A stretch of 64,000 nt of DNA from Gaiellaceae bacterium (GTDB lineage: Bacteria > Actinomycetota > Thermoleophilia > Gaiellales > Gaiellaceae): NCBI GenBank assembly GCA_035688025.1, contig DASSNM010000078.1, forward strand, positions 915 to 64,914, given 5' to 3'. The translations under genes and the position numbers were made by a program. Below, piece after piece: positions 38,399 through 64,000 of the stretch. Positions within the stretch are counted from its first letter, which is position 1, and each line of letters begins with the position of its first letter. The notes below the pieces were generated by a model, which was given only the letters and a program-made list of their open reading frames with translations, had not been told where the DNA came from and did no database searches.

Positions 38399-38941
38399 AT
38401 GAACGTCTTCGCACTCGTCGACGGCGACCCGCTCGCCGACCCGGAGCCGCTGATCCGGCGCGTCTACGCGTACGTCGCCTACCGCCTCGGCCACGGCCCG
38501 GAGGCGGAGGACGTCGTCGCGGCGACGTTCGAGCGCGCGCTCCGCTACCGGCACACGTACAGCCCGAAGCGCGGCGAGCCGATGGCATGGCTCGTGGGGA
38601 TCGCGAAGCACTGCCTCAACGACGCGCTCTCGGCGCGCGCGCAGGCGCCGGCCGAGCTGCGCCCCGAGGACGACGGCTCGGCGTCGTTCGAGGAGGCGTC
38701 GCTCGAGCGGCTCGCGCTCCGCGAGGCGATCGCGCGGCTGTCCGAGCGCGACCAGGAGCTGCTCGCGCTGCGCTACGGCGCCGACATGAGCGCCCGCGCG
38801 ATCGCGAAGCTGATGAACGCGCGGCCGAACGCGGTCGAGGTGGCGCTGCACCGGGCCGTGTCGCGGCTGCGGGAGGAGCTGGAGCCGCCGGTGGGGAGAC
38901 CGCACGCCCCGTCGAGCGCCGCGACGCCGGAGGCGTTCTGA
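38399..38941 (+). CDS. ECF-type sigma-70 family RNA polymerase sigma factor
   Basis: Uses the ATG at 38399 inside track ORF 38288..38941. Region 2 is RRVYAYVAYRLGHGPEAEDVVAATFERALRYRHTYSPKRGEPMAWLVGIAKHCLNDAL. Region 4 is LSERDQELLALRYGADMSARAIAKLMNARPNAVEVALHRAVSRLREEL. The alternative GTG at 38288 has a good AGGAG SD, but that stretch has visibly lower GC3. The stop shares one base with the wzm ATG. Confidence 0.8.
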   Translation: MNVFALVDGDPLADPEPLIRRVYAYVAYRLGHGPEAEDVVAATFERALRYRHTYSPKRGEPMAWLVGIAKHCLNDALSARAQAPAELRPEDDGSASFEEASLERLALREAIARLSERDQELLALRYGADMSARAIAKLMNARPNAVEVALHRAVSRLREELEPPVGRPHAPSSAATPEAF

Positions 38942-39849: not shown

Positions 39850-39850
39850 G

Positions 39851-41077: not shown

Positions 41078-41078
41078 G

Positions 41079-49084: not shown

Positions 49085-50223
49085 GGATCGCGCACCTGCT
49101 CGCGGAGCCGAGCCGCCACGGCGGCGCGGAGGCCCACGCGCTCGCGCTCGCGGCGGCGCAGGCCGCGCGCGGCGACGACGTGATCCTGGTCGCGCTCCGT
49201 CCGGGCCCGGACGCGCCCGCCGGCGTCCCGCTCCACGTCTCGACCGACCCCGCCTCGGCGCTCGCCGCCGCGGCCCCGGACGTCGTCCACGTGCACGGCA
49301 CGCCGCTCGGCGGCGGCGAGGAGGAGGCGCTCGGCCGGGCGGTCGTCCGCTCGCTCCACGACTGGTCGTTCGCCTGCGCGTCGGGCGAGAAGCGCTTCCG
49401 GGGCGACGTCCCCTGCGGGCGCGCGCACGGCGCCGGCTGCGTCGAGGGCATCCTCGCGCGCGGCTGCGCGCACCGCCCGAACGTGCTCGTGCCGCTGCGG
49501 CGGCTGCGGGAGATCTCGGCGCAGCTCCCCGCCCTGCGGGCGAGCGGCGCGGTCGTCGTCTACAGCCACGCGGTGCGCGAGGCGGCGCTCGCGAACGGCT
49601 TCCCGCCGGAGCGCGTGCACGTCGTCCCCTACTTCGTCGAGCGTGCGCCGGCGCCCGCGCCGGTCGCGGCCGGCCGCTCGTTCGTCTTCGCCGGCCGGGT
49701 CGTCGGCTCCAAGGGGCTCGACGTCGCGCTCCGCGCGCTCGCGGCTGCGCCCGGCGCCTGGGACGAGCTGCACGTCGCCGGCGACGGCTGGGCGCGGCCG
49801 GACGCGGAGCGGCTCGCGGCGGAGCTCGGAATCGGGGCCCGCGTCCGCTTCCACGGCTGGCTCGACGCGGCCGGCGTCCGGACGCTGGTGCGCGACTCGC
49901 GCGCGCTCCTCCTCCCCTCCCGCTGGCCGGAGCCGTTCGGGATCGCCGGCCTCGAGGCGCTCGCGCTCGGCCGCCCGGTCGTCGCCTCGCACGGCGGCGG
50001 CATCCCGGAGTGGCTGACCGCCGACTGCGGGATCCTCGTGCCGCCGGGGGACCCGGCGTCGCTCGCCGCCGCGGTCGCCCTCCTCGACGCCGAGCCCGGA
50101 CTCGCCGAGCGGCTCGGCCGAGGCGGCTGGGAGCGGGCGGCCCGCTACTCGCCGGCCGCGCACCTCGAGCGGCTCGACGCGGTCTACGCGAGCGTCGCCG
50201 CCGCGCGCGGGAGGGCGGCGTGA
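49081..50223 (+). CDS. GT4-family glycosyltransferase with a four-Cys insertion
   Basis: GTG at 49081 (GTGA overlap), 380 aa. It has FAGRVVGSKG and the E-x7-E motif EPFGIAGLEA. The Cys cluster lies at aa 99, 112, 120 and 129. Confidence 0.85.
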   Translation: MRIAHLLAEPSRHGGAEAHALALAAAQAARGDDVILVALRPGPDAPAGVPLHVSTDPASALAAAAPDVVHVHGTPLGGGEEEALGRAVVRSLHDWSFACASGEKRFRGDVPCGRAHGAGCVEGILARGCAHRPNVLVPLRRLREISAQLPALRASGAVVVYSHAVREAALANGFPPERVHVVPYFVERAPAPAPVAAGRSFVFAGRVVGSKGLDVALRALAAAPGAWDELHVAGDGWARPDAERLAAELGIGARVRFHGWLDAAGVRTLVRDSRALLLPSRWPEPFGIAGLEALALGRPVVASHGGGIPEWLTADCGILVPPGDPASLAAAVALLDAEPGLAERLGRGGWERAARYSPAAHLERLDAVYASVAAARGRAA

Positions 50224-51305
50224 GGCTGCTCGTCGCGGGCGCCTCGGCGGAGGAGATCTGCGGGACGCGGGACGCCGCGACCGTGCTCGCCGGGCCGCTC
50301 GGGGCGGCCGGCGCCGAGGTCGAGACGGTGTGGTGGGAGCGCGGCGCACAGCCGTTCCCGGCCTGGACGCGCGACCTGACCGCTCGCGCCCGCGGCGCCG
50401 ACGCCGTCCTCTGGCACTACTCGCCCTTCACCTACGCCACGCGCGGGGTGCCGACGCTCGTGCCGGCCGTCGTCAGGGCGATCCGCCGCGGCGGCGCGCC
50501 GCTCGTCGTCCTCCTCCACGAGCTCGTCTTCCCCTGGCGTCCCGAGCCGCGCGCGCTCGTGTGGGCGGCGACGCAGCGGGCCGCGCTCCTGCCCGTGCTC
50601 CGCGCCGCCGCGGGCGCGGTCGTCACCACGAACGACCGCCGCGACTGGCTCGCCTCGCATCGCCTGCTGCCGCGGCGGCCGCTCCTCTTCCTCCCCGTCC
50701 CGTCGAACCTGCCGGCAGCCGCCGCGCCGGACCGGGACGGCGGCGGGCTGCGGATCGGCGTCTTCGGCTTCCGCCGCGACGAGCTGCCGGTGGAGGTCGT
50801 CGTCGACGCCGTCGCGCGCGTGCGCGAGCGCGACGCCTCCGCGCGGCTCGTGCTCGCGGGCGCGCCCGGCCCCGACCGCCCCGAGGCGGACGCCTGGCGC
50901 GGCGCGGCCGGCCGCGCGGGGATCGCGGACGCGCTCTCGTTCACCGGCGTCCTGCCCGCGGACGAGCTCGCCGCCGCGATCGCCGGCCTCGACGTCGTCG
51001 TCTTCCCCGACCCGATGGGCCCGACCTCGCGCCGCGGCACGCTCGCAGCCGCCCTGGCGCAGGGACGCCCCGTCGTCGCCTTCCAGGGCCCGCTGACCTG
51101 GGAGCGCTACGCGGCCGAGGGCGCGCTCGACCTCGTCGCGCCGAGCAGCGAGGCGCTCGCCGCCCGGCTGGTCGAGCTCGCGGCCGACCCCGACCTGCGC
51201 GCCCGCCGCGGCGCCGCCGCCCGCGCCTTCCACGAGCGCTGGCTCGACCTGCCGCTCGTCGCCGAGCGCCTGCTCTCGTTCGTCCGGGAGGCGACCCGTG
51301 CCTGA
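50220..51305 (+). CDS. divergent GT-B/GT4-like glycosyltransferase
   Basis: GTG at 50220 (GTGA overlap), 361 aa. Its size and C-terminal layout are GT4-like (LVLAGAPGP..., VVVFPDP...GTLAAALAQGRPVVAF), but the E-x7-E motif is degenerate. Confidence 0.55.
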   Translation: MRLLVAGASAEEICGTRDAATVLAGPLGAAGAEVETVWWERGAQPFPAWTRDLTARARGADAVLWHYSPFTYATRGVPTLVPAVVRAIRRGGAPLVVLLHELVFPWRPEPRALVWAATQRAALLPVLRAAAGAVVTTNDRRDWLASHRLLPRRPLLFLPVPSNLPAAAAPDRDGGGLRIGVFGFRRDELPVEVVVDAVARVRERDASARLVLAGAPGPDRPEADAWRGAAGRAGIADALSFTGVLPADELAAAIAGLDVVVFPDPMGPTSRRGTLAAALAQGRPVVAFQGPLTWERYAAEGALDLVAPSSEALAARLVELAADPDLRARRGAAARAFHERWLDLPLVAERLLSFVREATRA

Positions 51306-52380
51306 GCGCGGCCGCCTCACCGTCGTCAGCCACGCCTGCGTGCTCGCGGTCAACCAGCTCGTGTACGCGCGCCTGCTGGAGCTCGGCTGGGACGTGACCC
51401 TCGTCGTCCCCGCGAGCTGGCGGCACGAGTACGCGGCCGCCGCCTTCCCCGCCGAGCGCCTGCCCGAGCTCGCCGACCGGATCGAGCCGCGCCGGGTGGC
51501 GCTCGCCGGCCGGCCGCAGAGACACCTCTATATAGGAGCGCCCGTCCGCGTCCTCCGCCGCACCCGGCCGGACGTGCTCTTCCTCGACGAGGAGCCGTTC
51601 TCGGTTCCGGCCCTCCAGTGGGCGCGCGCGGCCCGCCGGCTCGGCGTCCCGTTCGGCTGCGCCGCCTTCGAGAACCTCGACCGGCCGTTCCCGCTGCCGG
51701 CCCGGCTGATCCGCTCCCGGGTGCTGCCGCGCGCCCGCTTCCTCGCCGCCCGCTCGCCGGCCGCCGCCGACCTGCTCCGCCGCTGGGGGGCGCGCAGCCT
51801 CGTCGGCGTCGCCCCGCCCGCGGTTCCCGAATGGCCGCTGCCCGAGCCGCGCCGGAACGGAGGCTTCACGGTCGGCTACGCCGGCCGGCTCGTCCCGGAG
51901 AAGGGCGTGCTCGAGCTCGCCCGCGCGACGCAGCGGCTCGAGGGCGCCCGGCTCCTGCTCGTCGGCGAGGGGCCGCTCCGCGCCGAGGCAGAGGCGCTCG
52001 GCGCCGAGGTCCGCACGACCCGTCACGAGGCGATGGCGGCGGCCTACGCCGAGATGGACGTGCTCGCCCTGCCCTCCCGCACCACCGCGACGTGGGCCGA
52101 GCAGTTCGGCCGCGTCCTCGTGGAGGCCCTCTGGTGCGGCGTGCCCGTGGTCGGCTCCGACTCGGGCGAGATCCCGTGGGTGATCGAGACGACGGGCGGC
52201 GGTCTCGTCGTCCCGGAGGGCGACGAGGACGCGCTCGCCGCGGCGCTGCGCGAGCTCCGCGACGACCCGCGCCGCCGCGCCGAGCTGGCCGAGCGCGGCC
52301 GCCGCGAGGTCGCTGCGCGCTTCTCCGTCGAGGCGGCCGCCGGCGCGCTCGACCGGCTGCTGCTGGAGGCGCGGACGTGA
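51298..52380 (+). CDS. GT4-family glycosyltransferase
   Basis: Track ORF of 360 aa with a GTG start. It has YAGRLVPEKG and the E-x7-E motif EQFGRVLVEA. Confidence 0.85.
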   Translation: MPERGRLTVVSHACVLAVNQLVYARLLELGWDVTLVVPASWRHEYAAAAFPAERLPELADRIEPRRVALAGRPQRHLYIGAPVRVLRRTRPDVLFLDEEPFSVPALQWARAARRLGVPFGCAAFENLDRPFPLPARLIRSRVLPRARFLAARSPAAADLLRRWGARSLVGVAPPAVPEWPLPEPRRNGGFTVGYAGRLVPEKGVLELARATQRLEGARLLLVGEGPLRAEAEALGAEVRTTRHEAMAAAYAEMDVLALPSRTTATWAEQFGRVLVEALWCGVPVVGSDSGEIPWVIETTGGGLVVPEGDEDALAAALRELRDDPRRRAELAERGRREVAARFSVEAAAGALDRLLLEART

Positions 52381-53510
52381 GCGGCAAGCCGGAAGTCGCG
52401 GTCGTCGCGCACGGCGTCCACGAGGGCGGCGGCATGGAACGCGCGCTCTACGAGCTGATCGCGCGCGGCGCCCCGAGGTTCCGGTTCGTCGTCCTCGCGG
52501 CCGAGCTGGACGAGCGCCTGCTTCCGCTCGTCGAGTGGCGGCGGATCCGGACGCCGATGCGGCCGATTCCGCTGAAGATCCTCGTCTTCGCCGCCGCCGC
52601 CGGGCTAGCGCTGCGCCGCCGCCGGCCCGCGCTCGTGCACACGCTCGGCGCAGTCGTCCCGAACCGGGCCGACCTCGCGAGCGTGCACTTCTGCGCCACC
52701 GGCCTCGCGGCGGCGACGGGCCGCAACGCTCCCCGCGACGGCTCGTTCCTCCGCCGCGCGAACACGGCGCTGACCCGGCTGCTCGCGCGGGCGGGCGAGC
52801 GTCGCTGCTACCGGCCCGGACGCGTGCGCGCGCTCGCTGCCGTCTCGCCCGGCGAAGCGGATGAACTGCGGCGACACTTTCCCGCAGTGGACGTGACCGT
52901 GACCCCGAACGGCATCGACACCGCGCGCTACCGGCCCGACCCGGCCGCGCGCGCCGCCGTGCGCGCCGAGCTCGGCGTGGCCGACGACGCCCCGGTCGTC
53001 CTCTTCGTCGGCGGCGACTGGCACCACAAGGGCGTCGCGCTCGTGCTCGAGGGGGCCGCCCGCGCCGGCGTGCCGCTGCGTGTCTGGGTGGTCGGACGCG
53101 GCGACGCGGCGCGCTTCGGCCGGCTCGCCCGCCGGCTCGGCGTCGACGCGACCTTCCTCGGCGTCCGCCCCGACGTGGAGCGCTTCTTCGCCGCTGCCGA
53201 TGTCTACTGCATGGCGAGCCTCTACGAGACCTTCTCGATCGCCGCGCACGAGGCGGCGGCGTCCGGACTGCCCGTCGTCTCGACCCGCGTCCACGGCGTC
53301 GCGGAGCTCGTCGGCGACGAGGAGGCGGGGATCCTGGTCGCGCGCGACGCGGAGTCGATCGGCGCGGCGCTCGCCCGTCTCGCTGCCGACCCCGACCTGC
53401 GGGCGCGGCTCGGCGCCGAGGGCCGGCGTCGCGCCGAGGCGTTCACCTGGGAGCGCTCCGCCGAGAGCGTGCTCGCCCTCTACGACCGGCTGCTCCGGAG
53501 CGCGGCATGA
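52377..53510 (+). CDS. GT4-family glycosyltransferase
   Basis: GTG at 52377 (GTGA overlap), 377 aa. It has FVGGDWHHKG and the E-x7-E motif ETFSIAAHEA. Confidence 0.85.
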   Translation: MSGKPEVAVVAHGVHEGGGMERALYELIARGAPRFRFVVLAAELDERLLPLVEWRRIRTPMRPIPLKILVFAAAAGLALRRRRPALVHTLGAVVPNRADLASVHFCATGLAAATGRNAPRDGSFLRRANTALTRLLARAGERRCYRPGRVRALAAVSPGEADELRRHFPAVDVTVTPNGIDTARYRPDPAARAAVRAELGVADDAPVVLFVGGDWHHKGVALVLEGAARAGVPLRVWVVGRGDAARFGRLARRLGVDATFLGVRPDVERFFAAADVYCMASLYETFSIAAHEAAASGLPVVSTRVHGVAELVGDEEAGILVARDAESIGAALARLAADPDLRARLGAEGRRRAEAFTWERSAESVLALYDRLLRSAA

Positions 53511-55276
53511 CCTCGTCGGTCCGCGCGCTCCGCCGCACGCTCCGCCCGAGCACGGCGACGAGCGGCCGCCTCGTCGCCGCCGCCTGGTTCGCCGGCACGC
53601 TCGCGATCGCCGCCTTCGCCGGCGAGAACGCGGCCAGCCCTACCTTCTCGCGCCTGATCGTCGCGGCGGCGTTCCTCGCGCTCGTCGTCGCCTTCGGGAT
53701 GCGGAACCCGCGGGGGCTGCTGCTCGCGCTGCCGGTCTGGCTCGTCGCGCTCGGCCTCGTCCGCCGCCTGCTCAGCGGCATCTCGACGGGCGGGTCGGCC
53801 GACCCCATGCTGCTCGTCGAGCCGGTCGCCCTGATCATCCTCGTCTTCGCGGCCGCCGACCGCGGCGCGTTCAAGGGCCGCTCGACGCTCTCGTCGCTCG
53901 TGCTCGCCTACACGGGACTGACCCTGCTCGGCGCGTTCAACCCCGAGCAGGGCAGCATGAAGGCGGGCGTCACCTCGCTGATCTTCTTCGTGCCGATGCT
54001 CGCCTTCTGGGTCGGGCGCGGCCTCGTCGACGACGGGACGCTCCGGAAGCTGCTGCTCGTGATCGGCGTCGCGGCGATCCCGGCTGCGCTCTACGGGCTC
54101 AACCAGACCTTCGGCAGCTTCCCGTCCTGGGACCAGCGCTGGATCGCCGCGCAGGGCTACTCCTCGCTGAACGTCGGCGGAGCGGTGCGCCCGTTCGGGA
54201 CGTTCTCGAGCTCGGCCGAGTACGCGACCTTCCTCGCGCTCGCGATGCTGATCTGGCTGCGCCTCGGGCCGCGCCGCTTCCTGCGGCCGATCGGCGTCGC
54301 GACGGCGGCGCTGCTCGTGGTCGCGGTCTTCTACCAGGGGTCGCGCGGCTCGGTCGTCGTCCTGCTGGCGGCGTTCGCGGTCATGCTCGCGGCACGGCGG
54401 CGGATGCCGCTGACGGCGGCGGCCGTGATCGGCGCCGCGCTGCTGGCGGCGATGCCGTACGTCGTCAAGCAGATCGCGCCGACGAGCAACGCCGACGCGA
54501 CCGGCTCGTCCGCGCTCGTCCAGCACCAGGTGCAGGGGCTCGCGAACCCGCTCGACCCGAACAGCTCGACGGCAGGCGCGCACTTCCACCAGATCTGGCT
54601 CGCGATGGGCGAGGCGCTGCGGAAGCCGGCCGGCCAGGGGATCGGGGCGGTGACGATCGCGGGAGCGAAGTTCGGCGCGATCCAGGCGTCCGCGGAGGCC
54701 GACCCCGGGAACGCGGCGGTGGCGCTCGGGCTGCCCGGCCTGGTGCTCTTCTTCGCGCTCTTCTTCGTCGCCTACCGCTCGACGTACTCGCTCGCCCGAG
54801 GCGGCGGAGCGCTCGCCGGCGTCGCGATGGGGATCCTCGTCGGGACGACGCTGCAGTGGCTGAACGGGGGCGAGTACTCGGTGGCGTTCCTGCCGTGGCT
54901 CGTGCTCGGCTGGGTCGACCGGCAGCTGCTCCTGCGAAAGGCCGAGCCGACCGCCGAGGCCGCGGCCCCTGCGCCGCTTCCGGAGACGCCGCGCCCGCCG
55001 ACGCTCCGCCGCCTGCCGCGCCCGCGGCCGCGCCCGCAGCCCGCCCCGGCCGCGGAGACGGCGGCCAAGCCGGCCGAGACCGCTCCCCGCCGTCCGCGCG
55101 GGCCGATGCCGCGCCGCTGGAACGTCTTCGAGCTGGAGGCGCTGCCGGAGCTCTCGCTCGAGCAGCACTACCTGCTCGTCGAGCTGCGCCGGCACGCGTC
55201 CCCGGAGGGGCTCCTGCCGCTCTCGTTCGACGGCTTCGTCCGCTCCTCGTTCGGGGTCGGAGGCGGAGCGAGCTGA
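53507..55276 (+). CDS. Wzy_C / O-antigen-ligase-family polytopic membrane protein with a Pro-rich linker and a C-terminal tail
   Basis: Track ORF of 589 aa with an ATGA overlap. It has about 10-12 TM helices. The family-typical region runs from YQGSRGSVVVLLAAF through a long loop to AHFHQIWLAMGEALRKPAGQGIG. A Pro/Arg-rich segment follows (nt 54938..55105), then a 56-aa tail (55106..55273). Confidence 0.8.
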   Translation: MTSSVRALRRTLRPSTATSGRLVAAAWFAGTLAIAAFAGENAASPTFSRLIVAAAFLALVVAFGMRNPRGLLLALPVWLVALGLVRRLLSGISTGGSADPMLLVEPVALIILVFAAADRGAFKGRSTLSSLVLAYTGLTLLGAFNPEQGSMKAGVTSLIFFVPMLAFWVGRGLVDDGTLRKLLLVIGVAAIPAALYGLNQTFGSFPSWDQRWIAAQGYSSLNVGGAVRPFGTFSSSAEYATFLALAMLIWLRLGPRRFLRPIGVATAALLVVAVFYQGSRGSVVVLLAAFAVMLAARRRMPLTAAAVIGAALLAAMPYVVKQIAPTSNADATGSSALVQHQVQGLANPLDPNSSTAGAHFHQIWLAMGEALRKPAGQGIGAVTIAGAKFGAIQASAEADPGNAAVALGLPGLVLFFALFFVAYRSTYSLARGGGALAGVAMGILVGTTLQWLNGGEYSVAFLPWLVLGWVDRQLLLRKAEPTAEAAAPAPLPETPRPPTLRRLPRPRPRPQPAPAAETAAKPAETAPRRPRGPMPRRWNVFELEALPELSLEQHYLLVELRRHASPEGLLPLSFDGFVRSSFGVGGGAS

Positions 55277-56376
55277 GAGCGCTCCTCGTGAGCGCGAGCA
55301 GCCGACCGGGCGGGGCGGAGCGCGCGCTGCTCGGGCTCGCGCGCTCGCTGCCGGCCGCGGGCGTGACGCCGGTCGCGGTCGTGCTCGAGGACGGCCCGCT
55401 CGCGGACTGGCTCGACGACGCGGGGGTGCCGCCGCTGCGGCTGCCCGCGCATCGCTTCCGCCGGCTCGACCGCTCGCTCGCGACCGTGCTCGCGCTCCGG
55501 CGGGCGGTCCGCGAGCACGGCGCCGACGTCGTCCTCTCGAACCAGTCGAAGACGCATGTCGCCGGCGGCGCCGCCGCGCTCCTCGCCGGGGTGCCGGCGG
55601 TCTGGTGGCAGCACGGCGTGCCGCAGCCGTCGCGGATCGAGCGCGCGGCCGCGGCCGTCCCCGCGGCGGCGATCGCGTGCGTGAGCGAGGACGGCGTCGC
55701 CGCGCAGCGCCGCCTGACCCCGCGGCGGCGGCTGGAGAGGATCCCGGGCGGCGTGCCGCTCGGCGAGGTGCGCGCGGCCGCCGGCCGCGGCGCCGCGATC
55801 CGCGAGCGGCTCGGCTGGAGCGACCGCGTCGTCGCCGGCGTCGTCGCGCGGCTGGAGCCGTGGAAGGGCCAGGAGCTGTTCCTGCGCGCGGCCGCCGAGC
55901 TCGCGCGCGAGGACGACCGGCTCCGCTTCGCCGTCGTCGGCGGCGCCGTCCTCGGCTGGGAGGGCGACTACCCGCAGCGGCTGGAGGCGCTCGCCGCCGA
56001 GCTCGGTCTCGGCGACCGCGTCCACTTCGCCGGCCACCAGGAGGACGCCTGGGCGTGGCTGGACGCGCTCGACGTCGTCGTCGCCCCGTCGCTCGGCGAG
56101 CCGTTCGGTCTGACGGTCGTCGAGGCGATGGCGCTCGGCAAGCCGGTCGTCGCCACCGACTCGGGCGGCCATCGCGAGACGGTCGAGGACGCCGTCTCCG
56201 GCCTGCTCGTCGCGCCCGAGCCGGACGCGCTCGCCGCGGCGATCCGCCGCGTCGTCGCCGAGCCGGAGCTGGCCGCCTCGCTCGCCGCCGGGGCGCGCGA
56301 GCGCGCGGAGCTGTTCGACGAGAGCCGGACCGGTCCGGCGTTCGCGGCGCTCTTCGCCGCCGCGCTGGAGTCATGA
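55273..56376 (+). CDS. GT4-family glycosyltransferase
   Basis: In the frame of track ORF 53080..56376. The N-terminus LRALLVSASSRPGGAERA looks like a canonical GT4 start. This favours the CTG at 55273 (CTGA overlap), but the GTG at 55288 is the conservative alternative. It has VVARLEPWKG and the E-x7-E motif EPFGLTVVEA. Confidence 0.8.
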   Translation: MRALLVSASSRPGGAERALLGLARSLPAAGVTPVAVVLEDGPLADWLDDAGVPPLRLPAHRFRRLDRSLATVLALRRAVREHGADVVLSNQSKTHVAGGAAALLAGVPAVWWQHGVPQPSRIERAAAAVPAAAIACVSEDGVAAQRRLTPRRRLERIPGGVPLGEVRAAAGRGAAIRERLGWSDRVVAGVVARLEPWKGQELFLRAAAELAREDDRLRFAVVGGAVLGWEGDYPQRLEALAAELGLGDRVHFAGHQEDAWAWLDALDVVVAPSLGEPFGLTVVEAMALGKPVVATDSGGHRETVEDAVSGLLVAPEPDALAAAIRRVVAEPELAASLAAGARERAELFDESRTGPAFAALFAAALES

Positions 56377-58586
56377 GCGCCGACCCGCTGATCGTCTCGA
56401 CCGGCTGGTTCCCGGACGACGCCGGCGGCCTGCCCCGCTACGTCCGCGGCCTCGCCGAGGCGCTCGCGGCCGCGGGCGCCGAGCCGCGCGTGCTCGCGGT
56501 CGGCCCGGCGACCGACGCGCCGCCGTGGGTGACCGCGGTCGCGCCGGCCGGCTCGACGCTGCCGCTTCGCCTGCTCGCCTTCCGCCGCGCGGCCGCCGGC
56601 TCGCGAGCGCTCCTCGACGCGCACTTCGCGCTCTACGCGCTGCCGGTCCTGCTCGGCCGGCGCGGCCCGCTCGTCGTCCACTTCCACGGCCCCTGGGCGG
56701 AGGAGGCGGACGCCGCCGGCGACGCGGCCTCGCTCGGCGCCGTGGTCCGCGCCGCCGTCGAGCGCGTCGTCTACCGGCGCGCCGACGCGGTCGTCACCCT
56801 GAGCGCCGCGTTCGCGGAGCTCGTCTGCGAGCGGTACGGCGTCGACCGCGCGCGCGTGCACACGATCCCGCCCGGCGTCGACCTCGAGCGCTTCTCGCCC
56901 GGCGACCGGGCCGCCGCCCGCGCCCGGCTCGGGCTGCCGCCGGACGCGTTCGTCGCCGTCGCCGCCCGCCGCCTCGTGCCGCGCATGGGCCTCGACGTCC
57001 TCCTCGACGCGTGGACGCGCCTGGAGCTCCCCGGCGCCGCGCTCCTCGTCGCGGGCGAGGGTCCGCAGCGGGAGGAGCTCGAGGGGCGGGCCGTCCCCGG
57101 CGTCCGCTTCGCGGGCAAGCTCTCCGACGACGACCTGGTCGCGGCCTACCGCGCGGCCGACGTCGTCGTCCTGCCGAGCCGCGGCCTCGAGGGCTTCGGC
57201 CTCGCCGCGCTCGAGGCGCTCGCCTGCGGCACGCCGGTCGTCGCGAGCGAGACCGGCGGCCTGCCCGAGGCGCTCGCCGGGCTCCCGGGCGGCTGCCTCG
57301 TCCCGCCCGGCGACGTCGCGGCGCTCGCGTCCCGGCTGGGCGACGCCGCCGCCGGCGCGCGCCCGCTGCCGGACGAGGCGACGTGCCGCGCCCACGCCGA
57401 GCGGTTCGCGTGGGCGGAGGCGGCCCGCCGCCACCTCGACCTCTACGCCGCCGTCCGCGCCCGCCGGCCGCGCGTCGTCTTCCTCGACCACACGGCCGTG
57501 CTCGCCGGCGGCGAGGTCGCGCTGCTGCGCACGCTGCCGGCCCTCGACGTCGACGCGCACGTGATCCTCGCGACCGACGGCCCGCTCGCCGACGCGCTCC
57601 GCGCGGCCGGGATCGCGGTCGAGGTGCTGCCGCTGCACGAGAGCGCCCGCGACCTCGGCCGCGAGCACGTCGGCGCGCTCGGCGCCGCGGGCGAGGCGCT
57701 CCGCTCGCTCGGCCACGCGCTGCGGCTGGCGCGCCGCCTGCGCGAGCTGCGCCCGGACGCGGTGCATGCGAACTCGCTCAAGGCGAACCTCTACGGCGGG
57801 CTCGCCGCCCGGCTCGCGCGCGTCCCCGTCGTCTGGCACGTCCGCGACCGCCTCAGCGAGGACTACCTCGAGCCGCGCGCGCTGCGGATCGTGCACGCGG
57901 CCGAGCGGCTGCTCGCCGACGCCGTGGTCGTGGACACCGAGACCGTCCGCGCGACGCTCGCCCGGCCCGCGCGCGCGGTCGTGATCCCGAGCCCGGTGCC
58001 GCCCGCCCCGCCGGCGAGCGGGCGCGAGCCCGGCCCGCTGCACGTCGGCATCGTCGGGCGGATCGCGCCGTGGAAGGGACAGGACGTCTTCCTCGACGCG
58101 TTCGCGCAGGCGTTCCCGGACGGCGAGGAGCGGGCGGTCGTCGTCGGGGCGCCGCTCTTCGGCGCCGACGAGGAGGCGTGGGCCGCGGGGCTGGAGGAGC
58201 GCGCGCGCGAGCTCGGGATCGGCGACCGGGTCGAGTTCCGGGGCTTCCGCGAGGACGTCGCCGCCGAGCTCGCCCGCCTCGACGTGCTCGTCCACGCGTC
58301 GGTCATCCCGGAGCCGTTCGGCCTCGTCGTCGTCGAGGGGATGGCGGCCGGCCTGCCCGTCGTGGCCGCGGACGCGGGCGGCCCGGCCGAGACGGTCGAG
58401 GACGGGGTCGCGGGGATCCTCTATCCGCCGGGCGACGCGGCCGCGCTCGCGGCCGCGCTTCGCGACCTGGCCGGCGACCCCGAGCGCCGCCGCGCGCTCG
58501 GCGAGGCCGGCCGCGAGCGCGCCGCGGCGTTCGCGCCCGAGCGGGTGGCGGCGCGCCTGCGCGAGGTGTACGAGGGCCTGCGATGA
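56373..58586 (+). CDS. fusion of two complete GT4 glycosyltransferase modules
   Basis: ATG at 56373 (ATGA overlap), 737 aa. Module 1 has AARRLVPRMG and EGFGLAALEA. Module 2 starts near nt 57465 (PRVVFLDHTAVLAGGE) and has IVGRIAPWKG and EPFGLVVVEG. Confidence 0.85.
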   Translation: MSADPLIVSTGWFPDDAGGLPRYVRGLAEALAAAGAEPRVLAVGPATDAPPWVTAVAPAGSTLPLRLLAFRRAAAGSRALLDAHFALYALPVLLGRRGPLVVHFHGPWAEEADAAGDAASLGAVVRAAVERVVYRRADAVVTLSAAFAELVCERYGVDRARVHTIPPGVDLERFSPGDRAAARARLGLPPDAFVAVAARRLVPRMGLDVLLDAWTRLELPGAALLVAGEGPQREELEGRAVPGVRFAGKLSDDDLVAAYRAADVVVLPSRGLEGFGLAALEALACGTPVVASETGGLPEALAGLPGGCLVPPGDVAALASRLGDAAAGARPLPDEATCRAHAERFAWAEAARRHLDLYAAVRARRPRVVFLDHTAVLAGGEVALLRTLPALDVDAHVILATDGPLADALRAAGIAVEVLPLHESARDLGREHVGALGAAGEALRSLGHALRLARRLRELRPDAVHANSLKANLYGGLAARLARVPVVWHVRDRLSEDYLEPRALRIVHAAERLLADAVVVDTETVRATLARPARAVVIPSPVPPAPPASGREPGPLHVGIVGRIAPWKGQDVFLDAFAQAFPDGEERAVVVGAPLFGADEEAWAAGLEERARELGIGDRVEFRGFREDVAAELARLDVLVHASVIPEPFGLVVVEGMAAGLPVVAADAGGPAETVEDGVAGILYPPGDAAALAAALRDLAGDPERRRALGEAGRERAAAFAPERVAARLREVYEGLR

Positions 58587-59686
58587 CCGTCGCCCTCGTC
58601 CACGACTACCTCACGCAGCGCGGCGGCGCGGAGCGCGTCGTGCTCGCGCTGCTCGACGCGTTCCCGGGCGCGCCGGTGCACACGTCCCTCTACGACCCCG
58701 ACGGGACGTTCGCCGAGTTCGCCGCCGCCGACGTCCGCCCGAGCCCTCTCGACCGGGTCGGCCTCCTGCGCCGCCACCACCGGCTGGCGCTGCCGCTGCT
58801 CGCGCGGACCTTCGAACGGCTCGTCGTCGACGCGGACGTCGCCGTCTGCAGCTCGAGCGGCTGGGCGCACGGCGCGCGCGTCACCGGCCGCAAGGTCGTC
58901 TACTGCCACACGCCGGCGCGCTGGCTCTACCAGACCGACCGCTATGCCGGCGAGACCGGCCGGGCGGCCCGGCTCGCCGTCGGCGTCCTCGGCCGCCGCC
59001 TGCGCGCGTGGGACCGCGCCACCGCGGCGAGCGCGGACGCCTATCTCGTCAACTCGACCGCCGTCCGCGACCGGGTCCGCGAGCTCTACGGGATCGCGGC
59101 CGAGGTCGTCCCGCCGCCGCCGGCGCTCGAGCCCGACGGCGAGCAGCGGCCGGTGCCCGGACTCGAGCCCGGCTTCGTCCTCTGCGTCTCCCGGCTGCTG
59201 CCGTACAAGAACGTCGGCGCGGTCGCGGCCGCCTTCGCCCGTCTCCCGGACGCGCGCCTCGTCGTCGCCGGAGGAGGTCCGGAGCTCGAGCGGCTGCGGC
59301 GGACGGCGCCCGAGAACACGACCGTGCTCGGGCGGGTCGGCGACGACGAGCTGCGCTGGCTCTACGCAAACGGCGCGGGAGTCGTCGCCGCCTCGTACGA
59401 GGACTTCGGCCTGACGCCGCTCGAGGGCGCGGCGTTCGGACGGCCGGCGGCGGTGCTCCGGTTCGGCGGCTTCCTCGACACCGTCCGCGACGGGGAGACC
59501 GGACTCTTCTTCGCCGAGCCGACGCCCGAGGCGATCGCCGAGGCCGTCGAGCGGCTGCTCGCGAGCCGCTGGGACGAGTCCCGGCTGCGCGCCCACGCGG
59601 GCCTGTTTGGTCGTGCTCGGTTCGTGGAAAGACTCCGCGAAGCAGCAGCGGGCGGAACATCACCTCTACCTCGAGTCGAGCCTTAA
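58583..59686 (+). CDS. GT4-family glycosyltransferase (last gene of the locus)
   Basis: ATG at 58583 (ATGA overlap), 367 aa. It has an MTVALVHDYLTQRGGAERV N-terminus and the motifs VSRLLPYKN and EDFGLTPLEG. It ends in a TAA stop. Confidence 0.85.
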   Translation: MTVALVHDYLTQRGGAERVVLALLDAFPGAPVHTSLYDPDGTFAEFAAADVRPSPLDRVGLLRRHHRLALPLLARTFERLVVDADVAVCSSSGWAHGARVTGRKVVYCHTPARWLYQTDRYAGETGRAARLAVGVLGRRLRAWDRATAASADAYLVNSTAVRDRVRELYGIAAEVVPPPPALEPDGEQRPVPGLEPGFVLCVSRLLPYKNVGAVAAAFARLPDARLVVAGGGPELERLRRTAPENTTVLGRVGDDELRWLYANGAGVVAASYEDFGLTPLEGAAFGRPAAVLRFGGFLDTVRDGETGLFFAEPTPEAIAEAVERLLASRWDESRLRAHAGLFGRARFVERLREAAAGGTSPLPRVEP

Positions 59687-59916
59687 CCCTGCCGGGGTTT
59701 GGCTCAACTGTCGCGAAAACCCCCATCCGAGGGATATCGGCTTGCCCCAACCAGGGACACAGTTCGCGTGTTGTAAGTGCGAAAACACTCGCGATCTGAG
59801 TGAGCGTGCCGTATCCTGCGCCCACTCGGTTGCAGGTGGCACGAGAACGAGTGCGGCTAGTTCTTCGATGTTGAGCGACGAGGGGTGGTACACGCTTGAC
59901 CCCTGAGGCGAAGGGG
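59687..59916 (+). promoter_or_regulatory. low-GC intergenic leader/promoter region upstream of the giant surface-protein gene
   Basis: Apart from 38275..38398, this is the only sizeable non-coding stretch in the right half of the window, and it is visibly less GC-rich. A 7-bp hairpin (GGGGTTT 59694..59700 / AAACCCC 59717..59723) follows the GT4 stop. Candidate promoter elements are TTGTAA at 59771, GAAAAC-N18-CGTG at 59781..59808 and TATCCT at 59812. The SD-like GAGGCGAAGGGG lies just before the ATG at 59917. None of these elements is validated. Confidence 0.4.
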
Positions 59917-62900
59917 ATGTTGCGGCGGCTGCGGCTCCGCCTTGAGGATTGGGACTGGCGCCACGAAGCGGGGCGCGCCCGCCTGGCTTCGCTCGGCGGC
60001 CTCCTCCTCGTCACCGCGCTCGCGGCGGGCGTGGCGCTGTTCTTCGCCGGCAAGGCGACGTCGGCGTCCCGCAACTGCGTCGCCACGCTCGCGAGCGGCT
60101 CGACCGCGATCAACGCGGCGGCCGGATACACCTGCGACGGCACCGCGAACTCGACGCTCGTCCTGACCGGCTCGACGCCGGACAACCTGACGATCAACAA
60201 CGGCCAGATCATCACCGTCCCGGCCGACGCGACCGCCGGCGTGGCGTACCTCCTCAACAACGTCACGATCAACTCCGGCGGCAAGCTGAACCTGAACGAC
60301 GCGACGTCGAGCACCACGGGAGACGTGACCGTGCTCGGCACGTACACGATGGCGAACGGCGGCCTGCAGCAGTGGGCGAACCAGGCGGGCACGCTCGAGC
60401 TCGACGGCAACGTCACGATCGCGAGCGGGAACACCTCCGCGAACTGGATCGGCGTCAACAGCGGCACGCGCGTCCTCAAGCTCGCGGGCTCGGGCAACTC
60501 GACCTACGACGTCGCCTCGACGATCTACGTCAACCGCCTCTGGGTGGCGGTGCCGAGCGGCACCACGAAGACCTTCAGCCCGTCGGTCTCGCAGGCGAAC
60601 CCGGCGATCAACGTCACCCAGACAGGCGGCGTCACCGGCGCGTCGATCCCGACGGAGCTCGACCTCGGCACCGGCACGCCGAGCGGCACCGGCTGCAGCC
60701 CGACGACGCCGACGCGGAGCAACAACGTCGCCGGCAACATCGCGCAGACCGGCAGCCCCGGCAGCAACGGCACGATCCTCTTCAACCCGAGCACGGTCGA
60801 GCACAACTGCGTCGACGCCCACACCGGCGGCGTCGGCGACAACTCGACCGCGCTCCTGGTCGTCGGCGGCGCGAGCGGCAGCACCGTCAACATCGTCCCG
60901 CAGGGCAGCCTCGACTACGGCTCGTTCCCGAAGATGTCGATGGACCTGACGAACCAGACCATCAACTGGGTCGGGCCGCTGCTCTCTGGCACGACGGTCG
61001 CCGCGGCGCGTCTCGGTCAGGACCTCACCGTCACGAACGGCAGCGGCACGACCCACTGGTCGCTGAACAACATGCGCTTCGACTTCGCGCCGGCAGACGG
61101 GAACACGATGACGCTCTCGCCGAGCAGCGAGACGTGGCAGTCGGTGGACATCGGCGGCGAGAACGGCAACGGCGCGAACGACGGCCACGTCGTCATCGCG
61201 GACGGGAAGACGCTGAACGTCAACGCGAACGTCGGCCTGATGGACGGCTATCTCGACGTCAACGGCGGCGGCGCCGGCACCGGCACCGTGAAGATGACGG
61301 GCAACAACAAGGGCCTCGTCCTCAACTCGGCCTTCGACGGCGGCACCGGCACGATCGCGCTCTTCGGCGGCAGCACCGCCTCCGGCCCGATCTGGCTCGA
61401 CGGCTGCTACGGCGCCTCGAGCGACAGCAACTTCAGCGGCGGCAACACCGCGAACGTGACCGGCGCGACGGAGCACTGCCTCGGCGACGTCGGCGCGACG
61501 AGCGCCGTGTATCCGAAGACGATCACCGTCGACGCGGGCGCGTTCGTCGGCGTCCAGGGCAACATCCGCTTCCAGAGCGGCGGCTCGTTCGCGAACAGCT
61601 CGAACCAGCTCCAGCTCGGCGGCTTCTCGAGCTCGGTCGCGACGGCGAGCGCGAACCCGGGCGACGGCTCGACGGTGACGATCCACGACGTCACCTACCG
61701 CTTCGCGGCCACCCCGTCGAGCGGCAACGACGTCCAGATCGGCGCGTCTCGGGACATCACGCTCGCGAACCTCGCCGCGGCCGTCAACGGCACCGGGACG
61801 CCGGGCACCGAGTACTTCGCGGGCACGGCGCAGCCCGGCGACGTCGTGGCGTCGGGCGTGAACACGACGAACCACACGCTCATCCTGCGCTCGCACGCGC
61901 CGGGGACGACCGGGAACGGCGCCTATCTGGCGACCGCGAGCGGGGCGAGCAACATCACCTGGACGAGCGGCACCTTCAGCGGCGGCGACACGAACAACGC
62001 CGGCACCGTCTACTCGGCGGGCGCGTCGCTCACCGGGACGGCGACCTTCTACAACCTGTCGATCTCGGGCTCGACGACGCTGAACAGCAACACGACGGTG
62101 CTCGGCAACCTGATCCTGAACGCCGTTCCGTCCGGCTCCGGGACGATCTACATGTCGCCGCCCGCTTCGACGACGCGCATGATCCAGAGCGACACGAATC
62201 AGACGCTCTCCCAGCCGCTGTGGCTGAACGGCGAGAACTCGAACGCGAACGTCGCCGTCAAGAAGCTCGACGGGTCGACGAACGGCACGGTCACGGCGAC
62301 CGGCGCGGTGACGCTGAACTCGGGCACGCTGTCCGCCGGCGAGATCGACGCCCAGGGCAACGTCTCGGCGAGCCAGTACTTCAGCGGCGGCGCCGGCACG
62401 CTCAAGCTCAACAACACGAGCGCGGGCCAGACGTTCACGGGCACGCAGACGTCGACGGCCGGCGACCTGCCGAACGTGACCATCGCCGACACCGGCCAGA
62501 CGATGACCCTCTCGGGCACGGTGCGCAGCACGAAGAACTGGACGTTCTCGAGCGGCGCGGGCATCTCGGCGACGGGCTCGACCTTCTACGCGAACGGGAC
62601 GACCTTCGCCGGCTCGCAGACCCTGAACAACCTGAACGTGATCGCGAACTCGACGATCTCGAGCGGCACGCTCAGCACCGGCACGAGCGGCGTCGTCACG
62701 TTCGCGGGCGGCAAGCTCGCGACGGGCGCGAACGAGCTCTGGGTGAAGAACACGTCCACCTCCGCGGTGACCGGCGCGAGTGGGACGAACGGCTGGGTGA
62801 ACGGCAACCTCGAGCGCTCGATCCCGGGCTCCGGCTCGAGCCAGGCGTACACGTGGGACATCGGCGGCGCGACGAACTACACGCCCGCGACGACGACGTT

Positions 62901-64000
62901 CCCGACCCTGACCCAGGCCGGCTCGATCACGATGTCGGCGACGAGCGCGGACGCCACGCACAAGAGCACCTGGACGCTCAGCTCGACGAACTACGTCAAG
63001 CGCTACTTCACCGTCACGAACAGCGCCACCCCGGTCACGTGGAGCGGCGGCAACGCGAACACGAAGTTCTTCTACGTCACCGGCGACATCCAGAACAGCG
63101 CGACGGAGGCGAACTTCGTCGTCGCCAAGGACACCGATCCGAGCGGCACCGGCTCCTGGAGCACGCTCGCCGCGACCGCCGACGCCGTCGGCCACGGCAC
63201 GACCGCGACGAGTGGGATCAGCTCGCTGCAGTCGTCCGCGACGCAGTTCGCGCTCGGCGAGCCCGGCGGGCCCGACCACTTCAACCTGACGCCTGCGTCG
63301 ACCACGGTCACCGCCGGCGCCTCGACGACGCTGACGATCACCGCCGTGAACTCGAGCAACCAGACGTTCACCGGCTACACCGGCGACAAGACGATCACGC
63401 TCGGCGGCGCGAACAACGCCCCGGACGGGACGGTTCCGACCGGTAGCGACAAGACCGCCGCCGACGTGAACTTCGGCACCGCGACGACCATCACGTTCAC
63501 GAACGGCGTCGGCACGACCACGGTGAAGCTCTACAAGGCCGAGACCGCGCACCTGACCGCGACCGACGGCACGGTCAGCCAGGGCGCAACCGCCGACTGG
63601 ACGGTCAACCCGCACGCGGCGACGCGGCTCGTGGTCACCGGCTCCGGCACGCAGACGGCCGGCAGCGCGCAGACGATCACCCTGACGGCGAAGGACGCGT
63701 GGGGCAACACCGACACGAACTACTCGGGCAACGAGTCGATCACCTTCAGCGGCGCCAACGACCCGCTCGAGACGTCGAACCATCCGACGGTCACCAACAC
63801 GAGCGCGAGCGCCACGAACTTCGGCTCGGCGACGACGATCCACTTCGCCTCGGGCGTCAGCGACAACGACTCCAGCGGCAGCCGCTCGATGATCCTCTAC
63901 AAGGCCGAGACGGCGAACATCGCCGCGGCCGACTCGACGAACGCGATCAGCGCCTCCACCGGCAGCGACCGGCTGACCGTCGTGGTCAGCGCCCACGCCG
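59917..64000 (+). CDS. very large secreted/cell-surface protein, Thr/Asn/Gly/Ser/Ala-rich (S-layer- or adhesin-like), 3' end beyond the window
   Basis: Not in the ORF track because there is no stop within the window. My own translation from the ATG at 59917 gives 1361 uninterrupted codons with the GC3-rich codon usage of the neighbouring genes. It starts MLRRLRLRLEDWDWRHEAGRARLASLGGLLLVTALAAGVALFFAGKATSA, which looks like a signal peptide or anchor. Repetitive segments follow (...NVTINSGGKLNLN..., ...GNVTIASGNTSANW...), ending in Ig-like tandem domains. The nearest in-frame upstream stop is at 59872. Confidence 0.85.
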   Translation, partial: MLRRLRLRLEDWDWRHEAGRARLASLGGLLLVTALAAGVALFFAGKATSASRNCVATLASGSTAINAAAGYTCDGTANSTLVLTGSTPDNLTINNGQIITVPADATAGVAYLLNNVTINSGGKLNLNDATSSTTGDVTVLGTYTMANGGLQQWANQAGTLELDGNVTIASGNTSANWIGVNSGTRVLKLAGSGNSTYDVASTIYVNRLWVAVPSGTTKTFSPSVSQANPAINVTQTGGVTGASIPTELDLGTGTPSGTGCSPTTPTRSNNVAGNIAQTGSPGSNGTILFNPSTVEHNCVDAHTGGVGDNSTALLVVGGASGSTVNIVPQGSLDYGSFPKMSMDLTNQTINWVGPLLSGTTVAAARLGQDLTVTNGSGTTHWSLNNMRFDFAPADGNTMTLSPSSETWQSVDIGGENGNGANDGHVVIADGKTLNVNANVGLMDGYLDVNGGGAGTGTVKMTGNNKGLVLNSAFDGGTGTIALFGGSTASGPIWLDGCYGASSDSNFSGGNTANVTGATEHCLGDVGATSAVYPKTITVDAGAFVGVQGNIRFQSGGSFANSSNQLQLGGFSSSVATASANPGDGSTVTIHDVTYRFAATPSSGNDVQIGASRDITLANLAAAVNGTGTPGTEYFAGTAQPGDVVASGVNTTNHTLILRSHAPGTTGNGAYLATASGASNITWTSGTFSGGDTNNAGTVYSAGASLTGTATFYNLSISGSTTLNSNTTVLGNLILNAVPSGSGTIYMSPPASTTRMIQSDTNQTLSQPLWLNGENSNANVAVKKLDGSTNGTVTATGAVTLNSGTLSAGEIDAQGNVSASQYFSGGAGTLKLNNTSAGQTFTGTQTSTAGDLPNVTIADTGQTMTLSGTVRSTKNWTFSSGAGISATGSTFYANGTTFAGSQTLNNLNVIANSTISSGTLSTGTSGVVTFAGGKLATGANELWVKNTSTSAVTGASGTNGWVNGNLERSIPGSGSSQAYTWDIGGATNYTPATTTFPTLTQAGSITMSATSADATHKSTWTLSSTNYVKRYFTVTNSATPVTWSGGNANTKFFYVTGDIQNSATEANFVVAKDTDPSGTGSWSTLAATADAVGHGTTATSGISSLQSSATQFALGEPGGPDHFNLTPASTTVTAGASTTLTITAVNSSNQTFTGYTGDKTITLGGANNAPDGTVPTGSDKTAADVNFGTATTITFTNGVGTTTVKLYKAETAHLTATDGTVSQGATADWTVNPHAATRLVVTGSGTQTAGSAQTITLTAKDAWGNTDTNYSGNESITFSGANDPLETSNHPTVTNTSASATNFGSATTIHFASGVSDNDSSGSRSMILYKAETANIAAADSTNAISASTGSDRLTVVVSAHA
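63274..63612 (+). repeat. Ig-like domain repeat A inside the surface-protein gene (aa 1120-1232)
   Basis: The sequence HFNLTPASTTVTAGASTTLTITAVNSSNQTFTGYTGDKTITLGGAN...NFGTATTITFTNGVGTTTVKLYKAETAHLTATDGT follows the same pattern as the next unit. Confidence 0.6.
63613..64000 (+). repeat. Ig-like domain repeat B (aa 1233 to the window end)
   Basis: The sequence ATRLVVTGSGTQTAGSAQTITLTAKDAWGNTDTNYSGNESITFSGAN...NFGSATTIHFASGV...MILYKAETANIAAADST shares this pattern with repeat A: T.TAG...T.T.TA......Y.G...IT..GAN...NFG.ATTI.F..GV...LYKAETA. The LYKAETA motif starts at 63529 and at 63895. Confidence 0.6.

Follow-up and report, generated by a model that had tools for sequence, protein, structure and literature searches.

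A giant gene of uncatalogued modules behind an exopolysaccharide-type locus in Gaiellaceae, probably encoding a surface fibre

The locus and its giant reading frame

The stretch of DNA studied here, referred to as the window, comprises 64,000 nucleotides (nt) from a metagenome-assembled genome (MAG) of the Gaiellaceae, GCA_035688025.1, and corresponds to positions 915-64,914 of contig DASSNM010000078.1 on the forward strand. It ends within a giant gene that follows, after a short gap, a co-directional cluster of the exopolysaccharide type for glycan biosynthesis, and the product of this gene is regarded here, with a probability of roughly 0.7, as a giant filamentous protein, either exposed at the cell surface or secreted, of the adhesin or matrix-fibre type. 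The features of the gene are listed below, the residues being numbered according to P0001, the deposited partial protein described further on; for the protein read from the ATG codon, 7 has to be subtracted.

59896..64000, + strand: giant coding sequence, 3' end cut by the window (0 stops; G+C at codon positions 1/2/3 of 0.52/0.58/0.98; 100% identity to P0001)
59983..60051, + strand: hydrophobic segment LASLGGLLLVTALAAGVALFFAG, aa 30-52, after an Arg-rich tail (Kyte-Doolittle)
60067..61620, + strand: N-terminal region, predicted all-β, with conserved Cys pairs, aa 58-575 (homologue alignment, AlphaFold2 (AF2), hidden Markov model (HMM))
61621..61968, + strand: module A, compact α/β domain of phage type, aa 576-691 (AF2, HMMER, BFVD)
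61969..62685, + strand: modelled β-solenoid stalk, aa 692-930 (AF2, periodicity)
62278-62670, + strand: module B, core of the solenoid, aa 795-925 (HMMER)
62686..63261, + strand: module C, domain of ~170-190 residues, aa 931-1122 (12-member alignment A6)
63268..63618, + strand: immunoglobulin-like (Ig-like) repeat unit 1, aa 1125-1241 (42-47% identity to unit 2)
63619..64000, + strand: Ig-like repeat unit 2, aa 1242-1368 (unit 3 begins where the window ends)

The first-pass annotation had proposed that a frame beginning with the ATG at 59917 stays open for 1361 codons and that it is missing from the supplied list of open reading frames (ORFs). Both points were borne out: the translation of 59917-64000 yields 1,361 codons with 0 stops and runs to the window end, and its absence from the list has a mechanical cause, since the ORF lister omits those frames that leave either end of its source. 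The closest in-frame stop upstream is at 59872, with two possible starts of the gene downstream of it, the TTG at 59896—the choice of the GenBank record—and the ATG at 59917. It should be pointed out here that in DNA of such composition (69-80% G+C), where three of the six frames contain at most two stops across the same 4 kb, openness alone proves nothing and it is the composition by codon position that settles the frame. In the giant frame the G+C contents at the three positions (GC1/GC2/GC3) are 0.52/0.58/0.98, constant across every 600-nt slice, while the GC3 of the 60 genes called in the window spans 0.92-0.995 (mean 0.975). The choice of synonymous codons, too, equals that of the other 59 genes, as had been claimed of the neighbouring ones, e.g. 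0.61 vs 0.60 for ACG among the Thr codons and 0.99 vs 0.99 for AAC among those of Asn. The two ORFs listed for the same region, 59857..63996 on the minus strand and 59949..63446 on the plus strand, do exist, with the G+C peak at codon position 1 (0.97 and 0.98, respectively) and with Arg contents of 24% and 28%, and are thus, as already suspected, shadow frames. For genomes of at least 70% G+C, ORF length is uninformative about the coding frame, and lists that leave out end-truncated frames can conceal the largest gene of a window.

The giant frame is therefore a genuine protein-coding gene of this genome. The predicted protein is dominated by Thr (16%), Gly (13%), Ala (12%), Ser (11%) and Asn (8%), Thr and Ser together making up 27%, whereas Asp, Glu, Lys and Arg account for only about 9%, in agreement with the earlier description of its composition. 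The local G+C content falls at the gene to 0.69 from 0.78-0.80 upstream; the fall is caused by codon positions 1 and 2, i.e. by the Thr/Asn/Ser/Gly-rich composition, and not by foreign codons, horizontal transfer as its source being ruled out by the native GC3 and the native codon usage.

At 100% identity, the translation agrees with P0001, a partial 'hypothetical protein' of 1,439 residues (VFJ91_10750) deposited for a 65-kb contig of a Gaiellaceae MAG. That contig stops about 1.1 kb past the window, still within the giant gene and in the third repeat unit; the truncation seen at the window edge thus holds for the deposited sequence as well, a break of the assembly at the near-identical repeats being its likely cause. 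An exhaustive HMMER search with the N-terminal 1,070 residues as the query revealed 996 relatives, the best 149 of which form the basis of the domain counts given below. Two complete homologues exhibit the whole plan—P0005 (3,677 residues) from a sister Gaiellaceae MAG and P0013 (3,574 residues) from a metagenome of the Joint Genome Institute (JGI). P0005 and P0001 are collinear over more than 1,000 residues, and the identities to the homologues from the two other assemblies are 39-53%. What is visible here amounts to at most two-fifths, on the 5' side, of a giant gene.

Other searches were far less productive. A word-indexed homology search with the whole protein returned relatives of the Ig-like repeats only, missing P0005 at 47% identity over 730 residues, and with the N-terminal two-sequence profile nothing scored in such a search, because low-complexity words fill up the candidate list; the apparent 'orphan' status that indexed searches confer on low-complexity proteins is therefore not trustworthy. 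Pfam, NCBIfam and PHROGs yielded nothing usable for the whole fragment, and the sequence search of PDB with the giant protein gave no match. Concerning the scans of GTDB genomes, the first one was empty and the second one found the sister MAG only.

Modules of the giant protein

The protein starts with a basic tail and the hydrophobic segment LASLGGLLLVTALAAGVALFFAG of 23 residues, which is the only place where the Kyte-Doolittle mean of a 19-residue window exceeds 1.6. This plan (aa 1-57) is kept in both complete homologues, and in the three proteins the segment is followed by small-residue motifs (AFA-G, VFA-V and TSA-S), so that the resemblance to a signal peptide or anchor, noticed already at first reading, has gained in weight. 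The segment may act as a Sec signal peptide, or else it may anchor the N-terminus in the membrane. A Tat signal was rejected, since the three N-termini do not have the RR motif in common.

The subsequent region, aa 58-575, is covered as a whole by P0005 only (39% identity), P0013 and P0133 covering part of it; the multi-copy proteins with module A were left out of this alignment, since adding them caused misalignment. All three proteins keep Cys 61/62-80 and 504-528, and two of them keep Cys 267-305, pairs that would fit disulfides formed outside the cell. The AF2 model of aa 51-585, based on three sequences, is of low confidence, with a mean predicted local distance difference test (pLDDT) of 40.7 and short strands only. 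The HMM of module B scores 7.6 bits at aa 143-210 and 6.7 bits at aa 438-493, the best of 200 shuffles reaching 5.4 bits, and it recognises the equivalent parts of P0013 with E-values of 3e-9 and 2.5e-11. The region thus probably consists of decayed solenoid units. The motif N-[VL]-T-[IL]-x-[SN]-G, of which many degenerate repeats had been reported, occurs far above expectation (a shuffle mean of 0.01), but 'many' was an overstatement: there are three exact copies, at aa 90, 115 and 165, all before aa 175, and self-BLAST of the N-terminal 1,100 residues detected no internal repeat at E<0.01.

A well-defined solenoid is predicted further downstream. For aa ~704-939, AF2 gives a pLDDT of 80-95 with 53% strand and no helix, the autocorrelation of strands has its main peak at 12 and others at 36-37 and 47-48, and hydrophobic residues recur every 23-24 positions; this part is confidently modelled as a β-solenoid of ~24-residue coils. 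The idea of a single β-helix ~1,100 residues long is therefore too simple: a solenoid is modelled with confidence for this segment only, the first ~520 residues model poorly, and modules A and C are not solenoids. Foldseek of the solenoid model against PDB produced no match below E = 1, the top non-significant alignments all being β-helix proteins, i.e. HxuA, Ag43, Hbp, polygalacturonase and a phage depolymerase. Likewise, there was no match at E up to 1 to Beta_helix, PbH1, NosD or Pectate_lyase in Pfam/NCBIfam, only a trace of G8 (E = 0.15). Module B, the core of the solenoid, is present in about 270 copies in 76 of the best 149 relatives, with up to 13 copies per protein. One of its carriers, P0011 (3,873 residues), possesses a two-partner-secretion (TPS) domain and is encoded next to a gene for a ShlB-type transporter, which identifies it as a two-partner-secretion exoprotein.

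Module A is a 116-residue insertion that is absent from the otherwise collinear P0005 and from P0013; such an insertion of a phage-type domain into just one of the orthologs is unusual. It is modelled with a pLDDT of 94-98 and has no Pfam family. It is present in about 80 of the best 149 relatives, for the most part proteins 150-600 residues long, and forms the core of many small standalone proteins, with about 30-45% identity to those of phages. The search of BFVD, i.e. of predicted viral structures, gave nine significant matches (E-values from 3e-6 to 6e-4), the best five with a root-mean-square deviation of 1.6-2.9 Å over ~120 residues, and all nine are uncharacterised or generically named virion proteins. 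The standalone relative P0087 is encoded on phage contigs between the gene for the terminase large subunit and a gene for a 623-residue protein, probably the portal (loci L004, 9509-10168, and L005, 3463-4122), and there is a weak match to phrog_28344, a family of unknown function. Module A thus shares both sequence and predicted fold with virion proteins such as Gp68 of phage PhiJL001, proteins of Rhodobacter phage RcTitan and those of phrog_28344, from which it differs as a lone domain set into the surface protein of a cell; we know of no function for any of them. It may represent a surface-binding or decoration domain shared by phages and hosts.

Module C is characterised by the conserved residues G-x-V-x-G-x-L, Y-x-P and R-x-W and matches nothing in Pfam, NCBIfam or PDB, the comparison of its profile with PDB included. 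The indexed search revealed 25 unannotated relatives from uncultured bacteria, three of them with DUF11 and one with a sorting tail of the type IX secretion system (T9SS). Its AF2 model has a pLDDT below 50, and the MAFFT alignment is poor there.

The remaining visible part consists of tandem units of 116-127 residues, units 2 and 3 being 70-84% identical, and unit 1 exhibits 39-53% identity to the units of P0002, P0003 and P0005. The units carry LT(I/V)TA-x-D/N-xx-(G)N and with it, in the form LT(V/I)TA-x-D-xx-GN, the mark of Ig domains of the invasin/intimin type, and the relatives P0003 and P0004 are annotated with Big_1/Invasin_D3 domains. Pfam Big_1 (PF02369), however, did not match the window protein at E up to 1, nor the all-repeat P0002 at E up to 0.1, and the best named match of the repeat profile A5 in PDB was FdeC (4e9l) with a non-significant E-value of 0.43, the motif being common to four FdeC domains. 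Of the C-terminal Ig-like repeats described at the outset, the tandem arrangement is therefore firm, whereas the designation 'Ig-like' depends on the motif and on this non-significant match. More generally, the profiles of the repeat unit, of module C and of the C-termini of the homologues reached E-values of 0.4-4.6 only against PDB.

An anchoring module expected by the first-pass annotation in the missing C-terminus is probably absent. No domain of the S-layer homology (SLH) type was detected in the visible 1,361 residues or in the complete P0005, and neither P0005 nor P0013 ends with an LPXTG-type anchor, both lacking any hydrophobic segment besides the N-terminal one and thus a second transmembrane stretch. 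Their C-termini are 45% identical and form a conserved end region unlike the repeats, which in P0005 comprises ~130 residues (L002, ~20650-21031) and corresponds to the C-terminus of P0013 (L006). The last ~55 residues faintly resemble the β4-α4-β5 part of the receiver domain of a response regulator (3rqi; E = 0.62, non-significant).

Upstream gap and the glycan cluster

The region in front of the giant gene contains the following features:

35222..59686, + strand: co-directional cluster for biosynthesis of an exopolysaccharide-type glycan (24 kb, junctions overlap or abut)
53507..55276, + strand: candidate Wzy_C-type ligase, polymerase or O-oligosaccharyltransferase, polytopic, 589 residues (match of the sister ortholog)
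59687..59895, + strand: intergenic region 5' of the giant gene (~210-nt gap after overlapping or abutting genes)

The gap of ~210 nt in the window has its counterparts of ~190 nt in the locus of the sister MAG and of 225 nt in the third locus, that of P0013. It probably holds the own promoter and the 5' leader of the giant gene. The alignment of 59687-59895 with 9814-10000 of the sister locus L002 reveals the conserved blocks GCGAAAACCCCC-TCCGAGGGATAT, GTTG-AAG-GCGAAAA and CGAGAAC-AGTGCGGC-AGTTC; the promoter scan found no sigma-70 consensus, and no Rfam family was seen in the gap. A promoter of the extracytoplasmic function (ECF) type, GAGAAC-N17-CGAT, is not claimed here, as the sister locus does not preserve its -10 element.

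The cluster encodes a tyrosine autokinase (TIGR01007, above the cutoff), a priming glycosylphosphotransferase (TIGR03025, 380 bits with a cutoff of 295.55), an ECF sigma factor, a Wzm/Wzt-like ABC exporter (ABC2_membrane; ABC_tran with Wzt_C), a sulfotransferase and an epimerase, together with four glycosyltransferases of the family GT2 and about ten of the family GT4. The gene set of the slg type—an initiator of the PHPT (polyisoprenyl-phosphate hexose-1-phosphate transferase) kind, Wzm/Wzt and glycosyltransferases—thus adjoins the giant gene. The 589-residue membrane protein has at least nine hydrophobic segments and a Pro/Arg-rich tail of cytoplasmic appearance. It has no match of its own in Pfam or NCBIfam; its sister ortholog (61% identity), however, matches the full Wzy_C with an E-value of 1.2e-6 and 28.9 bits, the cutoff being 31.7, and the protein can therefore be considered a candidate for a very divergent member of the superfamily of ligases, polymerases and O-oligosaccharyltransferases.

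The gene order is the same in the sister MAG, i.e. four GT4 genes, the Wzy_C-like gene, GT4, double GT4, GT4, the gap and the giant gene. The gene of P0013 is also preceded by a GT4 gene, the giant gene thus coming after the last GT4 gene in three loci.

It should be noted that, in the window, the Wzc-type kinase and the initiator of the WbaP/exopolysaccharide type are combined with the Wzm/Wzt exporter (35222-38274 and 38941-41077), the genes scanned showing no Wzx flippase. Such a tyrosine autokinase and such an initiator are usual in Wzx/Wzy pathways. The same unexpected pairing of a WbaP-type initiator with Wzm/Wzt is noted in a review on S-layers (PMC2943079). The gene for the ECF-type sigma factor (38399-38941), situated between the genes of the priming transferase and the ABC exporter, has its best match in the BldN family, below the equivalog cutoff, and might serve to regulate the cluster or the giant gene. 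The sulfotransferase gene (41079-42053; Sulfotransfer_3, E = 2e-30) directly follows the Wzt gene, which suggests that the glycan is sulfated.

The surface fibre, its alternatives and the wider neighbourhood

The assignment of the giant protein to filamentous surface proteins is drawn from the putative export signal, the modelled solenoid stalk, the accessory domains, the Ig-like array and the repeat unit shared with a TpsA exoprotein, occurring in the order outlined above. The basic tail and the hydrophobic segment would direct the protein through the membrane by the Sec route, the segment then being either kept as an N-terminal anchor or cleaved off. The remainder would be located outside the cell, where the conserved Cys pairs could form disulfides. 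A long stalk of units of the module B type, well preserved at aa ~700-930 and presumably decayed in the first ~520 residues, would have module A, phage-type and decoration-like, and module C mounted on it, and the array of Ig-like repeats would extend the fibre outward. In Gaiellaceae the gene would close an exopolysaccharide-type locus as its last member, with a promoter of its own, and given its conserved position after that locus, the protein probably acts together with the neighbouring glycan, either carrying it, or binding and organising it at the cell surface. The coding frame, the order of the domains, the homologies, the solenoid model of aa ~704-939 and the synteny are results of the analysis; we infer the export, the topology, the shape of the fibre and any link to the glycan from the arrangement of the domains and genes.

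Several observations weigh against this reading. In the complete homologues there is no anchor besides the N-terminal segment, and their faintly receiver-like C-terminus would be odd for an extracellular protein. The first 520 residues and module C gave no usable AF2 model, and no part of the protein has a significant match to a curated family, a PDB sequence or a PDB structure, for which reason the term 'adhesin' has to be taken as deduced from the architecture; the role of a surface fibre would, as a whole, follow from anatomy and homology. In addition, three distant carriers of modules B/C have no glycosyltransferase neighbours; a general link of such proteins to glycan clusters is thereby ruled out, and the association with the glycan is specific to a small clade of three loci.

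As far as the known systems are concerned, the exoproteins of the TpsA type (FHA/FhaB, HxuA, HMW1) and the passengers of autotransporters (Ag43, Hbp) are also giant, rich in Thr, Gly, Asn and Ser and poor in charged residues, and are built on a long β-helical stalk of ~20-25-residue coils such as is predicted for the giant protein. The TpsA-like P0011 even uses module B as a tandem repeat, and HxuA, Ag43 and Hbp are among the top, although non-significant, structural alignments. The giant protein, however, contains neither the TPS domain (no match to PF05860) nor an autotransporter barrel, the gene upstream of it encodes a GT4 glycosyltransferase instead of a TpsB transporter (ShlB/FhaC), its export would rely on the N-terminal signal or anchor of the Sec type, and the host is an actinobacterium. 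The Big_1 arrays of invasin, intimin and FdeC consist, as the C-terminal part of the giant protein probably does, of tandem all-β units (~100-125 residues) with the signature LT(V/I)TA-x-D-xx-GN-x-(V/T), from which the giant protein differs by its longer units (116-127 residues) and by having no LysM or β-barrel anchor. The S-layer glycoproteins with slg clusters, such as SgsE and SpaA of Paenibacillus alvei, are likewise encoded beside a packed cluster of the WbaP/Wzm/Wzt/glycosyltransferase/Wzy_C type, the Wzy_C member being a candidate in the window, with the structural gene, like the giant one, apparently a separate transcription unit; the giant protein is, in contrast to SgsE and SpaA, without SLH, 3-4 times larger and of a solenoid-plus-Ig rather than lattice-forming design, and the present cluster adds the Wzc-type kinase, the ECF sigma factor and the sulfotransferase. 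With the defining features absent or inconclusive, the giant protein does not qualify for the TpsA, autotransporter, Big_1, LPXTG or S-layer families.

The alternative that survives best overlaps with the surface fibre rather than excluding it, and is possible, if on balance unlikely: the Thr/Ser-rich giant protein would be the acceptor of the glycan made by the cluster, primed by the WbaP-type enzyme, extended by the glycosyltransferases, exported by Wzm/Wzt and coupled to Ser/Thr by the Wzy_C-like protein acting as O-oligosaccharyltransferase, in parallel to SgsE and the slg cluster of Geobacillus stearothermophilus. The slg clusters comprise this set of functions in tightly packed genes, with the adjacent structural gene of the S-layer protein transcribed alone (PMC2943079). 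The window, too, combines such an initiator (PHPT) and Wzm/Wzt with numerous glycosyltransferases and the Wzy_C-like protein, the giant gene is set off by the conserved gap of ~200 nt, its product contains 27% of Thr and Ser, and the synteny is kept in three loci. The assignment to Wzy_C, on the other hand, lies below the threshold and was obtained for the ortholog only, and the family also holds O-antigen ligases, so that a protein transferase is not thereby identified. A Wzc-type tyrosine autokinase is typical of loci for free exopolysaccharide or capsule, and with such a kinase present the overall make-up of the cluster also fits an ordinary exopolysaccharide locus. Neither in the window protein nor in P0005 was SLH or another domain for anchoring in an S-layer found, and glycosylation and lattice formation would be hypothetical features. 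An enrichment of N-glycosylation sequons was rejected as well, 39 being observed vs 31 +/- 4.7 expected from the composition.

The fullest version of this idea, a dedicated surface-glycoprotein system of Gaiellaceae, has to be seen as speculative and rather doubtful. Here a fibre of more than 3,500 residues with a receiver-like C-terminal end would specifically accept a glycan, perhaps a sulfated one, that is made by the cluster of ~24 kb, exported by Wzm/Wzt and transferred by a divergent O-oligosaccharyltransferase of the Wzy_C type. If true, it would mean a pathway resembling that of S-layer glycoproteins in a deep actinobacterial lineage, on a wholly different, uncatalogued protein scaffold.

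It is quite improbable that the solenoid is an enzyme—a polysaccharide lyase, hydrolase or epimerase—trimming or modifying the polymer of the cluster. Enzymes with a β-helix act in alginate or Pel systems and as phage depolymerases, the giant gene does lie at the end of a polysaccharide cluster, and polygalacturonase and the phage depolymerase are among the weak, non-significant structural alignments, together with a phage protein of the pectate-lyase superfamily from BFVD (E = 0.22). All structural matches to enzymes, however, have E-values above 0.1, Pfam and NCBIfam gave no family of β-helix enzymes, not even with E-values of up to 1 allowed, and acidic and basic residues are scarce; module B recurs in extended tandem arrays and also in an exoprotein of the TpsA kind, a pattern typical of structural stalks, and an architecture of 3,600 residues dominated by Ig-like repeats is not enzyme-like.

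An origin of the giant gene as the tail-fibre or tail-spike gene of a prophage deserves hardly any credence. β-Helices are common in tail spikes of phages, and the closest relatives of module A, by both structure and sequence, are proteins of phage virion modules; the module is, however, an insertion of 116 residues missing from both homologues, the genes annotated in the ~36 kb around it (27.4-59.7 kb) include no phage gene, the giant gene has the GC3 and the codon usage of its own genome, and the MAGs share its synteny with the glycan cluster. Finally, a non-functional frame, be it one open by chance, as several frames stay open at 70% G+C and above (here three of six), a shadow of either listed ORF or a pseudogene in decay, is refuted by the GC3 signature of 0.98 found in the giant frame only, by the codon usage equal to that of the 59 neighbours, by the freedom from frameshifts and stops, by the homologues collinear over more than 1,000 residues in two other assemblies and by the several segments that match hundreds of proteins.

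Giant surface proteins of the solenoid/Ig kind near envelope loci are common in bacteria. The giant protein is thus a lineage-restricted addition to a familiar class, made of uncatalogued modules, and the current understanding is not changed by it. Gaiellales are an abundant soil lineage with few cultured members, and the giant protein is among the very few clues to their cell surface. It comprises ~1,400 residues without a match to a curated family, the modules of which nevertheless recur in hundreds of unannotated proteins, and modules A, B and C are three candidates for new domain families. The conserved place after an exopolysaccharide-type locus offers a connection, open to testing, of a surface fibre of giant size with one particular glycan.

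Upstream of the cluster, a gene on the minus strand (28219-29301) encodes a protein that combines two PG_binding_1 domains with LysM and with a lytic transglycosylase domain of the SLT type; near it lie a methyltransferase gene and one for an acyltransferase_3 protein (30199-31311), and a gene with a sulfatase domain is found at 29363-30202. Judged by the PG_binding_1/LysM/SLT protein and the acyltransferase_3 gene, the envelope-related neighbourhood reaches beyond the glycan cluster.

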